Below are positions 38,222 to 63,230 of a stretch of DNA of 64,000 nt, in pieces; position 1 is the first letter of the stretch, and each line of letters opens with the position of its first letter. The translations under genes and the position numbers were made by a program. The stretch is from Nitrosopumilus sp. (GTDB lineage Archaea > Thermoproteota > Nitrososphaeria > Nitrososphaerales > Nitrosopumilaceae): contig OZ243974.1 in assembly GCA_965214775.1 (NCBI GenBank), forward strand, positions 2,688,001 to 2,752,000. The letters run 5' to 3'. The notes beneath the pieces are model-generated. The model did no database searches. It had not been told where the DNA came from and saw only the letters and a list, made by a program, of their open reading frames with translations.

Positions 38222-38710
38222 AGACGCTATATGAAATCTTATCAGTATCCTGTGATATACAATTACCGTTGGGCCTGAGAGTCGATATGATCTTACCATG
38301 TACAAGGGTGTCTTACAGACTGACTCGCAACAGCAGGCGGAAAGCAATGTACCGCGCAGACGGTGAATGGGAGATTCCGCCCGGATCAGGCATTTTGATC
38401 AAAAAGGAGGTGATAACATGATCAACGTAGGAATAGACGTACACAAAAAGACATGCGTTGCAGCAGTAAAGGACGACTCTGGCAAGCTGCTAGAGCGATC
38501 CAAGTTTGAGAACAGCGTTTCTACAACAACGAATTTTGCAACAGACCTCAAGGCACAATACCCTGGACAGCTGTCAATCATGGCAGTATGCGAGTCCACT
38601 GTCACGCAGAGAAAGTATAAGAGGATGCATCGCTTAGCAACATCGTCCTGATTCGGAACACTGAGCTGGCAAGGGTCCACGGTAGGATTAGGTACGATTT
38701 CATATGGGAG
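38222..38710 (+). mobile_element. IS110 copy A: internally deleted, non-autonomous
   Basis: Both ends and the upstream non-coding region retained; CESTV|TQRKY fusion near 38600; AG core at each end. Confidence 0.92.
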
Positions 38711-38765
38711 ATCATGGGCGTAATACGCCGAAAACAATTTTGATCAGCCGATCCTGGCTATTTCA

Positions 38766-39678
38766 ATGAGTAACAACAGAAAGAACACAGAATACTACCG
38801 ACTCTACGAGCAAAAGCGCAGGCAGGAGAGCCCCCGCAAGAAGAGGGCAAGGAAGAACCTGGGAAAGATCGTGCGCAGGGTGGCCAAGAAGATGGCGGAC
38901 AAAACGGGAATCGATGCCAAACTTGCATGGTCTGCCATACGCATTGCGATCCTCAGGATCGAGAACCACCTGTCCTACAGGATCATGGCCACGCATCTGG
39001 AGACAAATCCGGACGATCTCAGGAGGTGCGGCCTGGACCACACACTCTCCAAGTCCACCATACACAACAGGGTGAAGATGCTCTGGGAAATGGGCAAGGA
39101 CTTTATGGACGAGGTCGTGCTGGCCATGTCAGACGGCGAGCGCATAGCGGACCTGCATGGTGACTCGACGGGGTTTGGCCTCCGCAAGTACAAGAGCTGG
39201 CATCATGCCAAGTACGGGGAGATGACAGGACACGACTTTGCAAAGCTGCACATAGCAGGTGCAGTAGGAGGCAGGATACTGTCATTTGAGGCCACGCCTG
39301 GTACATCGGCCGACTCGCCGGAGTTTGCCCGCATGTTTTCCCGCATTCCAAAGGGAGGATACGGCATAGTGGCGCTGGATTCGGCATACGATTCGTACAA
39401 AAACTGCGAGCTGATTGCAAAAAGCGGCCGCGGACCTGCCATAAAGCCGGCAAAGGGAAACGAAAAGCCTTGGCGGGTTCAGTCCCCGGGCCAAGATGCT
39501 GCAGTGGCTGCGTGACAGGCCAGACGAGTTCTGGCGCGCCTATCACATGAGGAGCCAGGTAGAGGCCCTGTTCTCGGCAATGAAGGAAAGGACTGGATCC
39601 GTCCTGCGCTCAAAGCTGGACGGAACCATTACAGTCGAGCTGTTCGCTCGCGTGTTGTGCTACAACCTTACGGTATAA
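38766..39678 (+). pseudogene. DDE_Tnp_1 transposase with frameshift near 39470
   Basis: GDSTGF, AKLH, LDSAYDS; YHMRSQVEALFSAMK in a second frame. Confidence 0.8.
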
Positions 39679-40153
39679 TTTTTATCATAATTCCGTACTG
39701 TTGTTGAACCGCAGCACTACCGTAAGGTATGGCCCGCATGGATATTTACGTTGCCTTTTGCGCATGGCCGGCCGAAAATGTCCCGTTCTGCATCTGAATT
39801 TACATACATACGGGGGCAGACTGGCAGATTATGGCAGCCTCTTGGAAATTTTTTGGACAACCCCGTTTGCGGCTCTTTCCACTTCCTCACTTCCGGGCTT
39901 TCATCCAACTGCCAATCCATAATTTGAGGCCCCGTTTTTGACTTGGGTTGATCAGCTGCTGCCACATGTACAGTTAAAAACCAAATATTCTTGTGTCAAA
40001 ATAGGCATCATAATACAATGACAATGCTATAATCCGCCATTTGGTTGACGTACTGAGCATTTGTGTGTCTTAGAAAGAAGGTACAAGAAGGTCTCGCCAC
40101 CACTTGGTAATTAAACACGAACTACATGCAACTATGGCTTTCATGCTAGTCAG

Positions 40154-40320
40154 AGAGATGATTCGAAATTAGCAGATTCGGATCATGCATAAACGAATTT
40201 ACGTTATTAAATCGACTAAAAGATTCACAAATGACAAGTCGTCTGCAAGATTACTCGATTGGCAAGCGTACAGAAAAATCCGGGTATTTGCACGGTCTCG
40301 AATTCCAGCAGATCACCCAT
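40154..40320. mobile_element. ISL2-derived MITE, reverse orientation
   Basis: cag|agagatgattcgaaattagcagattcggatc; other end degenerate. Confidence 0.65.
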
Positions 40321-60060: not shown

Positions 60061-61416
60061 GTGTCAAACATCATCATGATGTCACCAACACAAAACGATG
60101 TGTTTGCACACCAGTACGACATAGCATCACGCCAGTTTAAAACATTGCGACAGCGGTTCCCCAAGCTCGGAATGGCAGTCTCAAAGAGTCACAACGCGGT
60201 GTACGGCCATGCCGACGTACTGCGCGTACTAAGCATCATGTCTGATAGGAAGATGTTTGTCAGGTCTGCCGTGACGCATCTTCGCAGGAAGGCCTCAAAA
60301 TACCACTGGTAGCAGCAGTATGACGGCGGAACTACTGCTGCTGCTGCTGTTACCTCCTCCAAGAAGGGCGGCACATACAGCTCCCGTACACCCCATCCGG
60401 TCTGGATCCTAAAGACCATCCGGAGCGCCGGTCTGGACGAGACGCAAAGGTGGTGCAACTCCATGTTACAGCACACGGTAAGAAACGGCCGCAGGTCCGG
60501 CATGTTACACAACACGGACGTAGTGGCAATAGACGCTACTGACGTCGAATACTATGGCAAGGGCCTAAAGGATGTAGCCAGAAAGTCAAAGCCCAAGAAC
60601 GGTACGTCTACTTTTCTCTCGCACATTACCGTGCACGGAATAGGATCCGATGACGGCTCTGACCTCGTGCTTTCCTCGCTGCAGCTTCCAAAAGATGCAA
60701 AACTGGCCGATTTCGTGTCTAAAATGATCCGCAAAGCGTCCAGATCAGGGACGAAGATCAAGACATACCTGTATGACCGGGGATTCTTTAATGTCAACTG
60801 CATGGTGGCCGCAGGCAAAAGCCCGGGCTACTACGTCATGCCTGCAGTCAAGAACAAGAGGATAAAGGCGGCAATAGAGGAGCATCACCATAAAAAGCGC
60901 GATGCGATATCTGACTATGCCATGACCAACAAGGAGGGCAAAAGCGTCACGTTCAGGCTGGTCATTGTGAAAAAGAAAGAAGATGAAGACGAAAACAAAG
61001 ACAAAGACACAGACAAAAACAAAAACAAAAACAAAGAGGAATGCACAGAAAAAAAGAAGGAAAAGAAAAAAGAAACGGCAGACGACTACTTGGTCTTTGC
61101 CACCAACATGCATGCCAAAAGCGTAGAGGCCGTCATAGCTCAGATACCAGAAGAGTACCGCATGCGGTGGGGAATCGAGACCGGGTTCAGGGTGATCAAG
61201 GGAGTAATGGGCAAGACATGCAGCAATTCGCCGGCAGTCAGGATGTTGTTATTCTACATGCCCCTCATACTGTACAATCTCTGGAGGACTGCCATATTCA
61301 TGGATGTGGAATCCAAATGGGGCGGATTTGCGGGAGGTAAGGAGTTTACCATGGCGTTGTTTGTCGAGTGTATTACAGATGCAGCAGACTCGTTTGTAAA
61401 TGATCGCGGAAAGTAG
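60061..61416 (+). pseudogene. ISH3-family transposase with one in-frame TAG at 60310-60312
   Basis: AIDAT, YDRGFF, FATN, YRMRWGIETGFR; ORFs 60061 and 60463 share a frame. Confidence 0.85.
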
Positions 61417-61474
61417 TAGCGGCGGCCGCAGTGGTGCCGTGCCAGATGATGGTCTGCAAAAGTACACCTAGGAA

Positions 61475-61894
61475 CTCCCATATGAAATCGTACCTAATCC
61501 TACCGTGGACCCTTGCCAGCGTGATGTTCCGAATCAGGACAATGTTGCTATGCGATGCATCCTCTTATACTTTCTCTGCGTGAGAGCCTTGTTCTGAGTG
61601 CGGTACTCCTCTCCGGTTGTCAGCATGTGCCAGATTATCTCCAGCATGTGTCTTGCAACTGCAATCTTTGCCTTTTGCCATCCACGTCTCTTTCCTATCC
61701 TTTCATATATCGAACCAAGCCTTGGGTCGTTTCGTACTGCGACTGTGGCCGAGTTGACCATGGCCTGGCGCAGCCACACGGATCCCTGCTTTGTTATGCC
61801 GCCTCCTTTGTGTCTGTCTGCGCTGTCCCTGCGCGAGGGAGTCAGCCCTGCATACGAGACGAGCTTCTCCGGAGTGGCAAACCTCCTGATATCT
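61475..61894 (-). mobile_element. IS110 copy D: 3' part only, in tandem with copy C
   Basis: Matches 61893-62312; starts at an internal AG. Confidence 0.92.
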
Positions 61895-63230
61895 CCCATA
61901 TGAAATCGTACCTAATCCTACCGTGGACCCTTGCCAGCGTGATGTTCCGAATCAGGACAATGTTGCTATGCGATGCATCCTCTTATACTTTCTCTGCGTG
62001 AGAGCCTTGTTCTGAGTGCGGTACTCCTCTCCGGTTGTCAGCATGTGCCAGATTATCTCCAGCATGTGTCTTGCAACTGCAATCTTTGCCTTTTGCCATC
62101 CACGTCTCTTTCCTATCCTTTCATATATCGAACCAAGCCTTGGGTCGTTTCGTACTGCGACTGTGGCCGAGTTGACCATGGCCTGGCGCAGCCACACGGA
62201 TCCCTGCTTTGTTATGCCGCCTCCTTTGTGTCTGTCTGCGCTGTCCCTGCGCGAGGGAGTCAGCCCTGCATACGAGACGAGCTTCTCCGGAGTGGCAAAC
62301 CTCCTGATATCTACTATCTCAGAGATTATCGTCAGTGCAATGACATGGCTTATTCCAGGCATGGTCATAATCGTCTTGGCCCTCGTATCGCTTTCGGATA
62401 CAGAGGCAATGCTGCGCTCCAGATCCTTTATCTGATCCTGTATCCTCTTGATGTCATCAAGGTACATCTTCACAGTTGCCGCGTCAATCTCTGACATTTT
62501 TATCCCGTCTTGGATGTGCTGTATGGCAGAAATCGTAAACGTGCTGTGCGTGGGCAGGTCATAGTCATACTTTGCAAGTATGGCGTGTATCTTGTTCTTG
62601 CATCTGGTGGCTTCTGCCGTCTTGCCGGTTCTGGTCCTGCCCAGCATTCTGAGGTCCCTGTAGTGCTTGTCAGGCACAAACGACTCTGGCAGCATGTCTG
62701 CTCTGAGCAGGTCGGCAAGTATATTTGCATCTACGCGGTCGTCCTTTATCTTGGCGTGCGCTATCACCTTGACCTTTGCCGGATGTACCAGCACGGTGTC
62801 TATCCCGCAGTCCTCAAGCGTGTCATGTACGATAATCCAATAGTTGGCAGTGGACTCGCATACTGCCTTTATTGGCAGCTGTCCGCAGTATTGTTCCTTG
62901 AGATATGTTGCAAAATTCGTTGTTGCCAAAACGCTGTTCTCAAACTTGGATCGCTCTAGCAGCTTGCCAGAGTCATCCTTTACTGCTGCAACGCATGTCT
63001 TTTTGTGTACGTCTATTCCTACGTTGATCATGTTATCACCTCCTTTCTGATCAAAATGCCTGATCCGGGCGGAATCTCCCATTCACCGTCTTCTGCGCGG
63101 TACATTGCTTTCCGCCTGCTGTTACGAGTCAGTCTACTGAACACCCTTGTACATGGTAAGTTCCGATCGACTCTCAGGCCCAACAGTAATTGTATATCAC
63201 AGGATACAGATAAGATTTCATATAGCGTCT
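61893..63230 (-). mobile_element. IS110 copy C, full length
   Basis: Both ends with AG core; intact ORF. Confidence 0.93.
61952..63031 (-). CDS. IS110-family DEDD recombinase
   Basis: Near-identical to 58841-59920. Confidence 0.95.
   Translation of the reverse strand: MINVGIDVHKKTCVAAVKDDSGKLLERSKFENSVLATTNFATYLKEQYCGQLPIKAVCESTANYWIIVHDTLEDCGIDTVLVHPAKVKVIAHAKIKDDRVDANILADLLRADMLPESFVPDKHYRDLRMLGRTRTGKTAEATRCKNKIHAILAKYDYDLPTHSTFTISAIQHIQDGIKMSEIDAATVKMYLDDIKRIQDQIKDLERSIASVSESDTRAKTIMTMPGISHVIALTIISEIVDIRRFATPEKLVSYAGLTPSRRDSADRHKGGGITKQGSVWLRQAMVNSATVAVRNDPRLGSIYERIGKRRGWQKAKIAVARHMLEIIWHMLTTGEEYRTQNKALTQRKYKRMHRIATLS

Follow-up and report, generated by a model that had tools for sequence, protein, structure and literature searches.

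The 64,000-nucleotide (nt) stretch of DNA analysed here (the window; G000:C1:2688001-2752000) belongs to the genome of an ammonia-oxidising archaeon, a thaumarchaeon, which is designated G000 and consists of a single contig of 2.83 Mb. The window carries three copies (A, B and C) and one fragment (D) of a mobile element that has a recombinase gene and, upstream of it, a sequence encoding a structured RNA of about 130 nt. We conclude with high confidence that these are IS110-family elements in the broad sense, belonging by their ends to the IS1111 group, which move by RNA-guided site-specific recombination and whose guides have been re-aimed within one genome. The family membership of the protein, an RNA fold with compensatory changes, the exact boundaries of the elements and a covariation of the guides with both flanks were established in this analysis. 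An earlier note on this DNA, made from the letters of the window, had proposed an archaeal IS110 programmable recombinase with guides diversified within one genome, and the covariation, the family membership and the two-loop fold support that proposal.

Guide segments covary with both flanks of the insertion sites

When copy B was used as a blastn query, 49 aligned pieces were found genome-wide in G000, and a covariance model of the RNA core gave 23 matches. The matches fell into family 1 (the type of copies A, B and C) and a second family approximately 67% identical to it in the left end, and the left end at G000:104814 resembled a third kind. The recombinase was intact in three copies of the genome.

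Among 15 family-1 left ends of G000, the mean pairwise difference per site was 0.39 at the 12 non-core guide positions and 0.033 at the other 173 positions, a 12-fold higher variability of two 5-6-nt segments of the first loop compared to the remaining left end. The earlier note had described these differences as clustered in two patches, and indeed 10 of the 12 non-core guide positions varied compared to 21 of the 173 others (Fisher p = 2e-7). Its patch strings and coordinates for copies A, B and C were correct (Table 1), as were the flanks that it gave for A (GCTTAT-AG...AG-ATCATG) and for C/D (ATCAGT-AG...AG-TTCCTA). Copy B occupied a site equivalent to that of C/D, as claimed (ATCAGT-AG...TG-TTCCTA), with a guide fit of 4/5 on each side and TG as the right core. 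Element position 23 of the family-1 left ends (58664 in B; CTTATC-N-GTATCC, where N is C, A or T) was as variable as the guides; a minority base was present in 9 of 15 copies and tracked the guide class, which may simply reflect lineage.

The left side was examined in 35 left ends in which terminus and target loop were both intact; 24 came from G000 and 11 from other genomes, and together they represented 30 outer-flank classes. The 3' segment corresponded to the left flank plus AG: in the 30 flank classes, 139 of 180 positions matched, compared to a mean of 69.1 in shuffles, and 139 was reached in none of 100,000. Positions -1 to -5 matched in 25-28 of the 30 flank classes and position -6 in 6 of 30, indicating an effective left-hand guide of 5 nt plus AG. 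When the left flank was shifted by 1-3 nt, the matches dropped from 139 to 27-41. With family 1 of G000 alone, 56 of 78 positions matched in 13 classes (one copy per class), a value reached in 12 of 100,000 shuffles.

The right side was examined in 14 elements with an assignable right end, including C via fragment D and one remnant. When the reverse complement of the 5' segment was used to predict AG and the right flank, the five bases after AG agreed at 52 of 70 positions (0/100,000 shuffles), and at 43 of 60 when C/D and the remnant were left out (1/100,000). Compensatory pairs of guide and site were found within single genomes: in G002, guide TGCAAA was present at flank CGCAAA and TGCGAA at AGCGAA, and in G172, TTAAGT was present at GTAAGT and TGTAGC at TGTAGC. 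With two guide variants each at cognate sites, these two genomes show that diversification within a genome is not peculiar to the window. Loci L022 and L024 differed from each other in a covarying manner on both sides.

The covariance model was then run on 151 genomes of the class and matched nine, including G000 and G182, the latter used in the count only. The matches were confined to one taxonomic family (8 of 80 genomes there compared to 0 of 70 in eleven other families). An independent set of 20 loci was assembled from seven genomes, none of which had been used in deriving the rule. On the left side, 89 of 100 positions matched (shuffled mean 41.3; 0/100,000); 12 loci fitted perfectly, six had one mismatch, one fitted at 3/5 and one at 2/5, and 65 of 75 positions matched when the set was collapsed to 15 distinct combinations. 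Right flanks were found in eight of these loci; for the copies of G172 and several other loci, no right end was found within the sequence fetched, and they do not enter the tally. The right flank fitted at 6/6 in L046, L062, L071, L055 and L061, as well as in L052 (read by eye), and at 4/5 with a one-base bulge in L074. These findings show that the covariation of guide and flank across copies, which the earlier note had named as a check, is strongly positive on both sides and recurs in seven other genomes.

Target sites lie at or near the ends of other insertion sequences

Copy A was located approximately 45 bp inside the left inverted repeat of its host insertion sequence (IS). In the host IS of B and C/D (body 59980-61474; DDE_Tnp_1 open reading frame (ORF) 60463-61416), both terminal repeats were hit at the same position. 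A further guide class was found just ahead of the start codon of an IS630-like gene (DDE_3), and another near an IS66-family gene. The IS that had targets in or next to their ends encoded DDE_Tnp_1, DDE_3 and IS66-type transposases, and the one genome G000 contained several guide classes, each aimed at a conserved sequence of a different host IS family.

Element ends and precision of insertion

All left ends began ...N-AG-ACGCTATATG and all right ends finished ...GATTTCATATGGG-AG-N; in full, the right end reads ...CATATGGG, then AG, as had been noted earlier. The subterminal inverted repeat ATATGAAATC / GATTTCATAT was perfect over 10 bp and matched at 13/15 overall, with 7 bp (AGACGCT) beyond it on the left and 3 bp (GGG) on the right. 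In related subfamilies, the repeat had changed on both sides together (ATATC/GATAT, ATACG/CGTAT). Copies B and C were both full length at 1336 bp (counting the left AG and excluding the right-hand core dinucleotide), each with an intact ORF of 359 amino acids, and the non-coding stretches comprised 199 nt ahead of the start codon and about 55 nt past the stop codon. TATA-like stretches were seen by eye only, TTTCATAT in the right end and CTATATGA in the left end.

For six insertions, the sequence 'left flank + AG + right flank' was reconstructed and searched for in G000 with up to 3 mismatches. Four of the six reconstructed targets had uninterrupted single-AG sites (17, 8, 5 and 1 matches), and the other two had no uninterrupted copy in G000 at that threshold. 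The empty form of copy A's target, GCTTAT-AG-ATCATG, was present elsewhere in the genome. Since empty sites contain a single AG and occupied sites have AG on both sides, insertion is precise at a single AG, and no target duplication was seen besides the one shared dinucleotide.

Several junctions in G000 departed from this arrangement. In copy B, TG replaces AG as the right-hand core while the gene is intact; if excision requires the core on both sides, B may be immobile despite its intact gene. At the C/D joint (window 61885-61900), the right end of C meets the internal sequence ...GATAGT-AG of D, followed by ATATCA; the left half of this internal site, ahead of the AG, matches C's guide at 4/5. 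At G000:C1:2788405-2788420, the right end of a derivative that has lost its gene (type i, see below) abuts the base that directly follows a sibling copy's 3' guide. Both joints are consistent with an element having inserted into a sibling where the site matched by half, the direct repeats then having collapsed. On the minus strand at G000:C1:1348576-1348672 (locus L039), a left-end remnant broke off precisely at the AG that closes its own 3' target guide (TTCAGT-AG) and continued with TTCCGATTG, the exact right half-site predicted from its own 5' guide (6/6). A deletion appears to have arisen here when the guide-encoding DNA, serving as a pseudo left half-site, recombined with the right junction; the arrangement recalls the 'half-match' recombination described for IS621 in a preprint (bioRxiv 10.64898/2026.08.31.748434).

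At G000:C1:834793-835040, a truncated family-2 copy, comprising the left end and the adjoining 35 nt of the gene, was followed directly by GTAAG-AG-TTTACCCCTCAGG, which looks like an intact, empty family-2 target site; the right flank there was identical to that of locus L022 in another genome. In locus L023 (OZ250170.1), a 15-nt unit (GAAATACTGTTATGA...) was repeated in a long tandem array after the right end of a related element.

Structure of the guide RNA

The RNA was aligned from fifteen left ends, covering three subfamilies of G000 and three other genomes, and was analysed with RNAalifold and by a separate count of pairs. Four helices were supported, the closing stem (in B, 58693-58698 with 58809-58814) and three stems in the arms: the outer stem GAGUCG / UGACUC and the hairpin stem UACC / GGUG of the first arm, and the hairpin stem UACCG / CGGUG of the second arm. 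Across the 21 pairs of these helices, 95.2% of the cells were paired, and nine pairs had changes on both sides. The observed pairing or covariation score was reached in none of 500 shuffles, and pairing fell to 23-42% when the partners were slid by 1-3 columns. Three pairs were G-U in 13-15 of the 15 sequences and would be C-A on the other strand, which identifies the gene strand as the one that encodes the RNA.

The left-end RNA contained both a target-binding and a donor-binding internal loop. The first internal loop held the two variable patches, and the second carried GAAUGGGAG, the right-end sequence plus AG, on its 3' side; the 3' strand of this donor loop, GAATGGGAG, compares with the right end TATGGG plus AG, and the ATGGGAG reported in the earlier note was confirmed at 58790-58796. 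The 3' target guide was followed in 14 of the 15 aligned sequences by AC, the first two bases of the element. An Rfam search of positions 38000-64000 (E up to 1) returned two transfer RNAs (tRNAs) and three chance matches only, and no bridge-RNA family.

The recombinase

The recombinase matched the Pfam families DEDD_Tnp_IS110 (E 3e-28) and Transposase_20 (E 6e-21), both exceeding the gathering score, and the NCBIfam model NF033542 'IS110 family RNA-guided transposase' with 245.5 bits compared to a cut-off of 140 (E 8e-73). These scores place it in the IS110 family in the broad sense, that of the DEDD RNA-guided transposases. In the PDB, it matched the IS621 and ISCro4 transposases (E about 1e-11). 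Residues D7 (GIDVH), E59 (CEST), D98 and D101 (DDRVDA) and the serine in LTPSRRDSA aligned with like residues of ISCro4 in a HMMER alignment. The catalytic residues of IS621 are given in the published account as D11, E60, D102, D105 and S241, and the equivalence of the present residues to them was judged from position only. The nearest plasmid-borne protein relatives, at 37-38% identity, included one from Haloarcula, whose element has a 15-bp subterminal repeat, and one from Rhizobium, whose element has a non-coding region downstream.

Gene-less derivatives occupy sites that match their own guides

Two types of derivative of approximately 480 bp lacked the recombinase gene. Type i (478-484 bp) had one deletion junction common to four copies in three flank classes, and type ii (487 bp) comprised three copies in two flank classes. 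Copy A, of type ii, consists of the left end, the first 190 nt of the gene and the last 111 nt. It differed from the copy at G000:2831779 at 2 of 487 positions; the two were in different host IS, at sites sharing CTTAT-AG-ATC. All three intact copies had guides of the TCAGT/TTCC type, and the other guide classes were found on derivatives or truncated copies.

The derivatives occupied sites matching their own guides, and because their recombinase must come from elsewhere, they suggest that guidance is in cis. It is quite possible, and we advance it tentatively, that the guide acts essentially in cis, nearly every element, the gene-less ones included, being found where its own RNA points, as would be expected if the RNA were made mainly from the excised circle about to integrate. 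The elements would then be independently evolving 'guide plus ends' modules, each specialised on the terminus of a different resident IS family, IS parasitising other IS, in an archaeal lineage that joins IS1111-type ends with an upstream compact two-loop RNA.

Proposed mechanism and alternative explanations

We infer that the RNA is transcribed, that the element forms a circle, that the protein is catalytically active and that recombinase is supplied in trans. The RNA encoded on the gene strand of the 200-bp left end has two arms joined by a single closing stem, and each arm comprises a stem, an internal loop and a hairpin. The DEDD recombinase would exchange strands at the AG common to the circular junction (...GATTTCATATGGG-AG-ACGCTATATG..., that is, ...ATATGGG-AG-ACGCTA...) and the target, and exchange at this shared AG would leave the element with AG on either side and nothing else duplicated. 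In G000, mutations in the two target guides would have given rise to several specificities, each for a conserved terminal site in a different resident IS. The derivatives of approximately 480 bp, which lost the gene and kept the RNA and both ends, would have spread to guide-matching sites with recombinase from the three intact copies.

Information might instead have flowed in the reverse direction, the flank being copied into the patches after insertion, for example by conversion at the junction, so that the patches would reflect the site and not select it. In favour of this reading, up to 10 nt of the left junction are identical to the 3' patch and the AC after it, and some junctions fall exactly at the AG of that patch (G000:1348672, G000:2788408). 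We nevertheless regard it as very improbable. Many empty sites share the sequence of the occupied ones, as a pre-existing specificity for repeated sites predicts; the two type-ii copies that differ at 2 of 487 positions are at two sites with the same guide-matched core; and in the experiments reported on relatives, the guide determines the site (PMC11208160, PMC11187229).

It is similarly hard to credit that the guides work as single-stranded DNA of the element end and not as RNA, like the subterminal DNA in IS200/IS605 transposition. The sequence evidence does not tell RNA from DNA directly. The family of the protein, however, is reported to bind and use RNA (PMC11208160, PMC11187229), and the fold of approximately 130 nt, its compensatory changes and its strand-specific G-U pattern are typical of a structured transcript.

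The least credible alternative is that the protein alone chooses the target, the patches being fast-evolving loop positions and the flank match arising from joint duplication of copies and flanks: flanks are shared to some extent through the repeated host IS (35 copies reduce to 30 flank classes), but the match persists at one copy per flank class, depends on the register, recurs with different sequences in seven other genomes, and near-identical recombinase genes (elements 97-99% identical) and derivatives of the same source are found at different sites according to their patches.

Several results weigh against RNA-guided movement with re-aimed guides. On the right side, the seven family-1 elements of G000 taken alone matched at 26 of 35 positions (973/100,000 shuffles), which is only moderately strong, and the copies are interrelated, so that the permutation figures overstate independence even when collapsed by flank class. 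Among the insertions of G000, guide TCTTAT was found at flank ATCAGT (G000:2169386) and only 2/6 positions matched at G000:1690518; on the right side, 2/6 positions matched at G000:2634801. The right side of locus L019 likewise matched at 2/6. In the independent set, L057 fitted at 2/5 on the left and at about 2/6 on the right (read from printed strings). In 3 of 13 copies of the family-2 type, a GTAAG guide was at a GTATG site or the reverse. Possible causes of these misfits are use of another copy's RNA, tolerated mismatches, half-site events and a later change of the guide.

In the donor arm, the outer stem GCGGA/UCCGC was invariant and without covariation support; it was read by eye and is outside the pair count, family 1 being one column off in the alignment. 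A contiguous complement of AG-ACGCTA that could act as the left-end donor guide was searched for in the RNA and not found. The earlier note had reported this second donor guide as not clearly matched by eye, and at best a covarying match of 3-4 nt was located (AGC, AAC, AACG or GG-C compared to GCT, GTT, CGTT or GCC). Contigs of four DNA runs over 58300-63500 contained neither a circle junction nor an empty site, from which nothing follows, the contigs being short and broken at repeats. The same contigs showed the type-i deletion form as a joint of 58849 to 59714, and loose ends at 63230 from other copies.

Comparison with known systems

RNA-guided recombination is established for IS621 (PMC11208160, PMC11208158) and for the seekRNAs of IS1111 and IS110 elements (PMC11187229), and the covariation of guides with natural targets was the route by which bridge RNAs were discovered (PMC11208160). 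The comparison below follows those parts of the published accounts that describe guides, ends and targets. In IS621, the 5' strand of each loop equals the left half-site sequence, the 3' strand is complementary to the right half-site, and the left flank adjoins the RNA-bearing left end (PMC11208160, PMC11208158). The IS1111 group is defined by subterminal inverted repeats, usually of 11-13 bp, beyond which the left end extends by 7 bp and the right end by 3 bp; in its seekRNA, the complement of the top strand is 5' of the match to the bottom strand (Siddiquee et al. 2024, PMC11187229). The seekRNA of this group is encoded downstream of the gene with a few upstream exceptions, such as ISMtsp17, whose RNA is not characterised in the parts of the account compared here, and natural re-aiming among relatives is described for ISEc11 versus ISXne4 (PMC11187229).

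An IS621-like geometry, the first working model, was rejected on the published strand rules (PMC11208160, PMC11208158) and the seekRNA guide order (PMC11187229). The likeness to IS621 drawn in the earlier note stood with respect to the two-loop RNA in the left end, upstream of the gene, with target and donor loops and with guides ending ...CU (5') and ...AG (3'). It did not stand with respect to geometry, the guide order and the ends being traits of the IS1111 group: the 5' guide equals the left flank in IS621, whereas here it is complementary to the right flank, and the core in gene orientation is AG here and not CT. The reversed guide order with the same CU/AG endings at the RNA level indicates that the element is turned round relative to the crossover site of IS621. 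Further differences are that consecutive stem-loops are described for IS621, whereas one long-range stem closes both arms here, and that the similarity of the proteins is remote (E 1e-11). The two nt after the 3' target guide match the donor, as in the handshake guides of IS621; this is no more than a resemblance.

With the IS1111 group (ISEc11, ISKpn4, ISPst6, ISPa11), the elements have in common a DEDD transposase, subterminal repeats with 7-bp and 3-bp extensions, the absence of duplication beyond a dinucleotide, and the guide order, the complement of the top strand being 5' of the match to the bottom strand in the RNA. The repeat is usually 11-13 bp there compared to 10 bp perfect (13/15) here, and the seekRNA gene is downstream there, whereas the long non-coding region is upstream here. 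The host here is a thaumarchaeon, and diversification here is among copies of one genome. We assign the element to the IS110 family as an IS1111-type member whose guide RNA is upstream, by its ends and guide order and not by comparison with an IS1111 transposase; the position of its RNA departs from that of the group.

The nearest published case to the guide-bearing derivatives, as far as the account of it extends, is ISPpu9 with solo ssr9 modules in Pseudomonas putida (PMC12288879). ISPpu9 is also of the IS110 family, and its small-RNA module is found apart from the transposase gene as well and is said to move modularly; the RNA gene is downstream there (PMC12288879), in contrast to the arrangement here.

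Coordinates and neighbouring features

The positions of the copies, their parts and their host IS are listed in Table 1. Fragment D spans from the internal ...GATAGT-AG followed by ATATCAGG to the right end, and the true right flank TTCCTAGG comes next. Large ORFs (1010, 528, 939 and 651 amino acids) run between A and B on the minus strand (window 44792-54372). The two tRNA genes of the window (Rfam) have the entries 58342-58416 and 56588-58658, the second ending approximately 210 bp ahead of B's host IS.

Table 1. Positions in the window of the element copies, their guide-RNA parts and the insertion sequences in which they lie
Feature	Position	Strand	Description
Host IS of copy A	38179..39864	+	Inverted repeats GGGGTTGTCCAAAAAATTTCC at 38179-38199 and 39844-39864; DDE_Tnp_1 ORF 38766-39515
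Copy A	38222..38710	+	487-bp internally deleted derivative ('type ii'); AG at 38222-38223 and 38709-38710
Guide-RNA core of A	38267..38392	+	Closing stem P1, target loop arm, donor loop arm; 5' target guide TATGATCT 38286-38293, 3' target guide TCTTACAG 38311-38318
Host IS of B and C/D	58628..63244		Both terminal inverted repeats (GTAACCATATCAGT-AG-TTCCTAGRTGTACTTTTG) interrupted, one by B, the other by C/D
Copy B	58642..59979	+	Full-length; left AG 58642-58643; right core TG at 59978-59979
Left subterminal inverted repeat of B	58649..58658	+	ATATGAAATC; partner GATTTCATAT at 59965-59974
Guide-RNA core of B	58687..58815	+	P1 stem, target-binding loop and donor-binding loop
Target-binding loop of B	58706-58713; 58731-58738		5' guide TTGGAACT; 3' guide TTCCGTAG, then AC
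Donor-binding loop of B	58762-58770; 58788-58796		5' strand; 3' strand GAATGGGAG
Recombinase gene of B	58841..59920	+	359 amino acids; DEDD_Tnp_IS110 plus Transposase_20
Fragment D	61475..61892	-	Final 416 bp of another copy, plus AG at 61476-61475
Copy C	61893..63230	-	Full-length; gene 63031-61952; guide-RNA core 63185-63057
Guides of copy C	63166-63159; 63141-63134	-	5' guide TCGGAACT; 3' guide TTCAGTAG

Significance

Archaeal IS110 recombinases are known, 662 of them according to one survey (bioRxiv 10.1101/2024.06.21.599552). Full-text literature searches returned no archaeal guide RNAs of this kind, no diversification within a genome and no guide-bearing derivatives, and supplementary tables may list such elements. 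Earlier publications cover the mechanism as well as natural re-aiming; what is new in detail is the arrangement, the host and the radiation within one genome.

RNA-guided recombination by IS110 and IS1111 elements is under development as a tool for genome writing. The natural, internally controlled set of guides and targets described here gives the working code of one archaeal system (5 nt, AG, 5 nt) and displays the mismatches that occur in nature. It also documents an arrangement, IS1111-type ends and guide order with an upstream RNA, that the account of the group mentions only as an exception (PMC11187229). These findings further indicate that gene-less derivatives with a guide of their own can spread, and that one IS lineage splits into specificities for the ends of other IS families, which bears on the competition of mobile elements within a genome.

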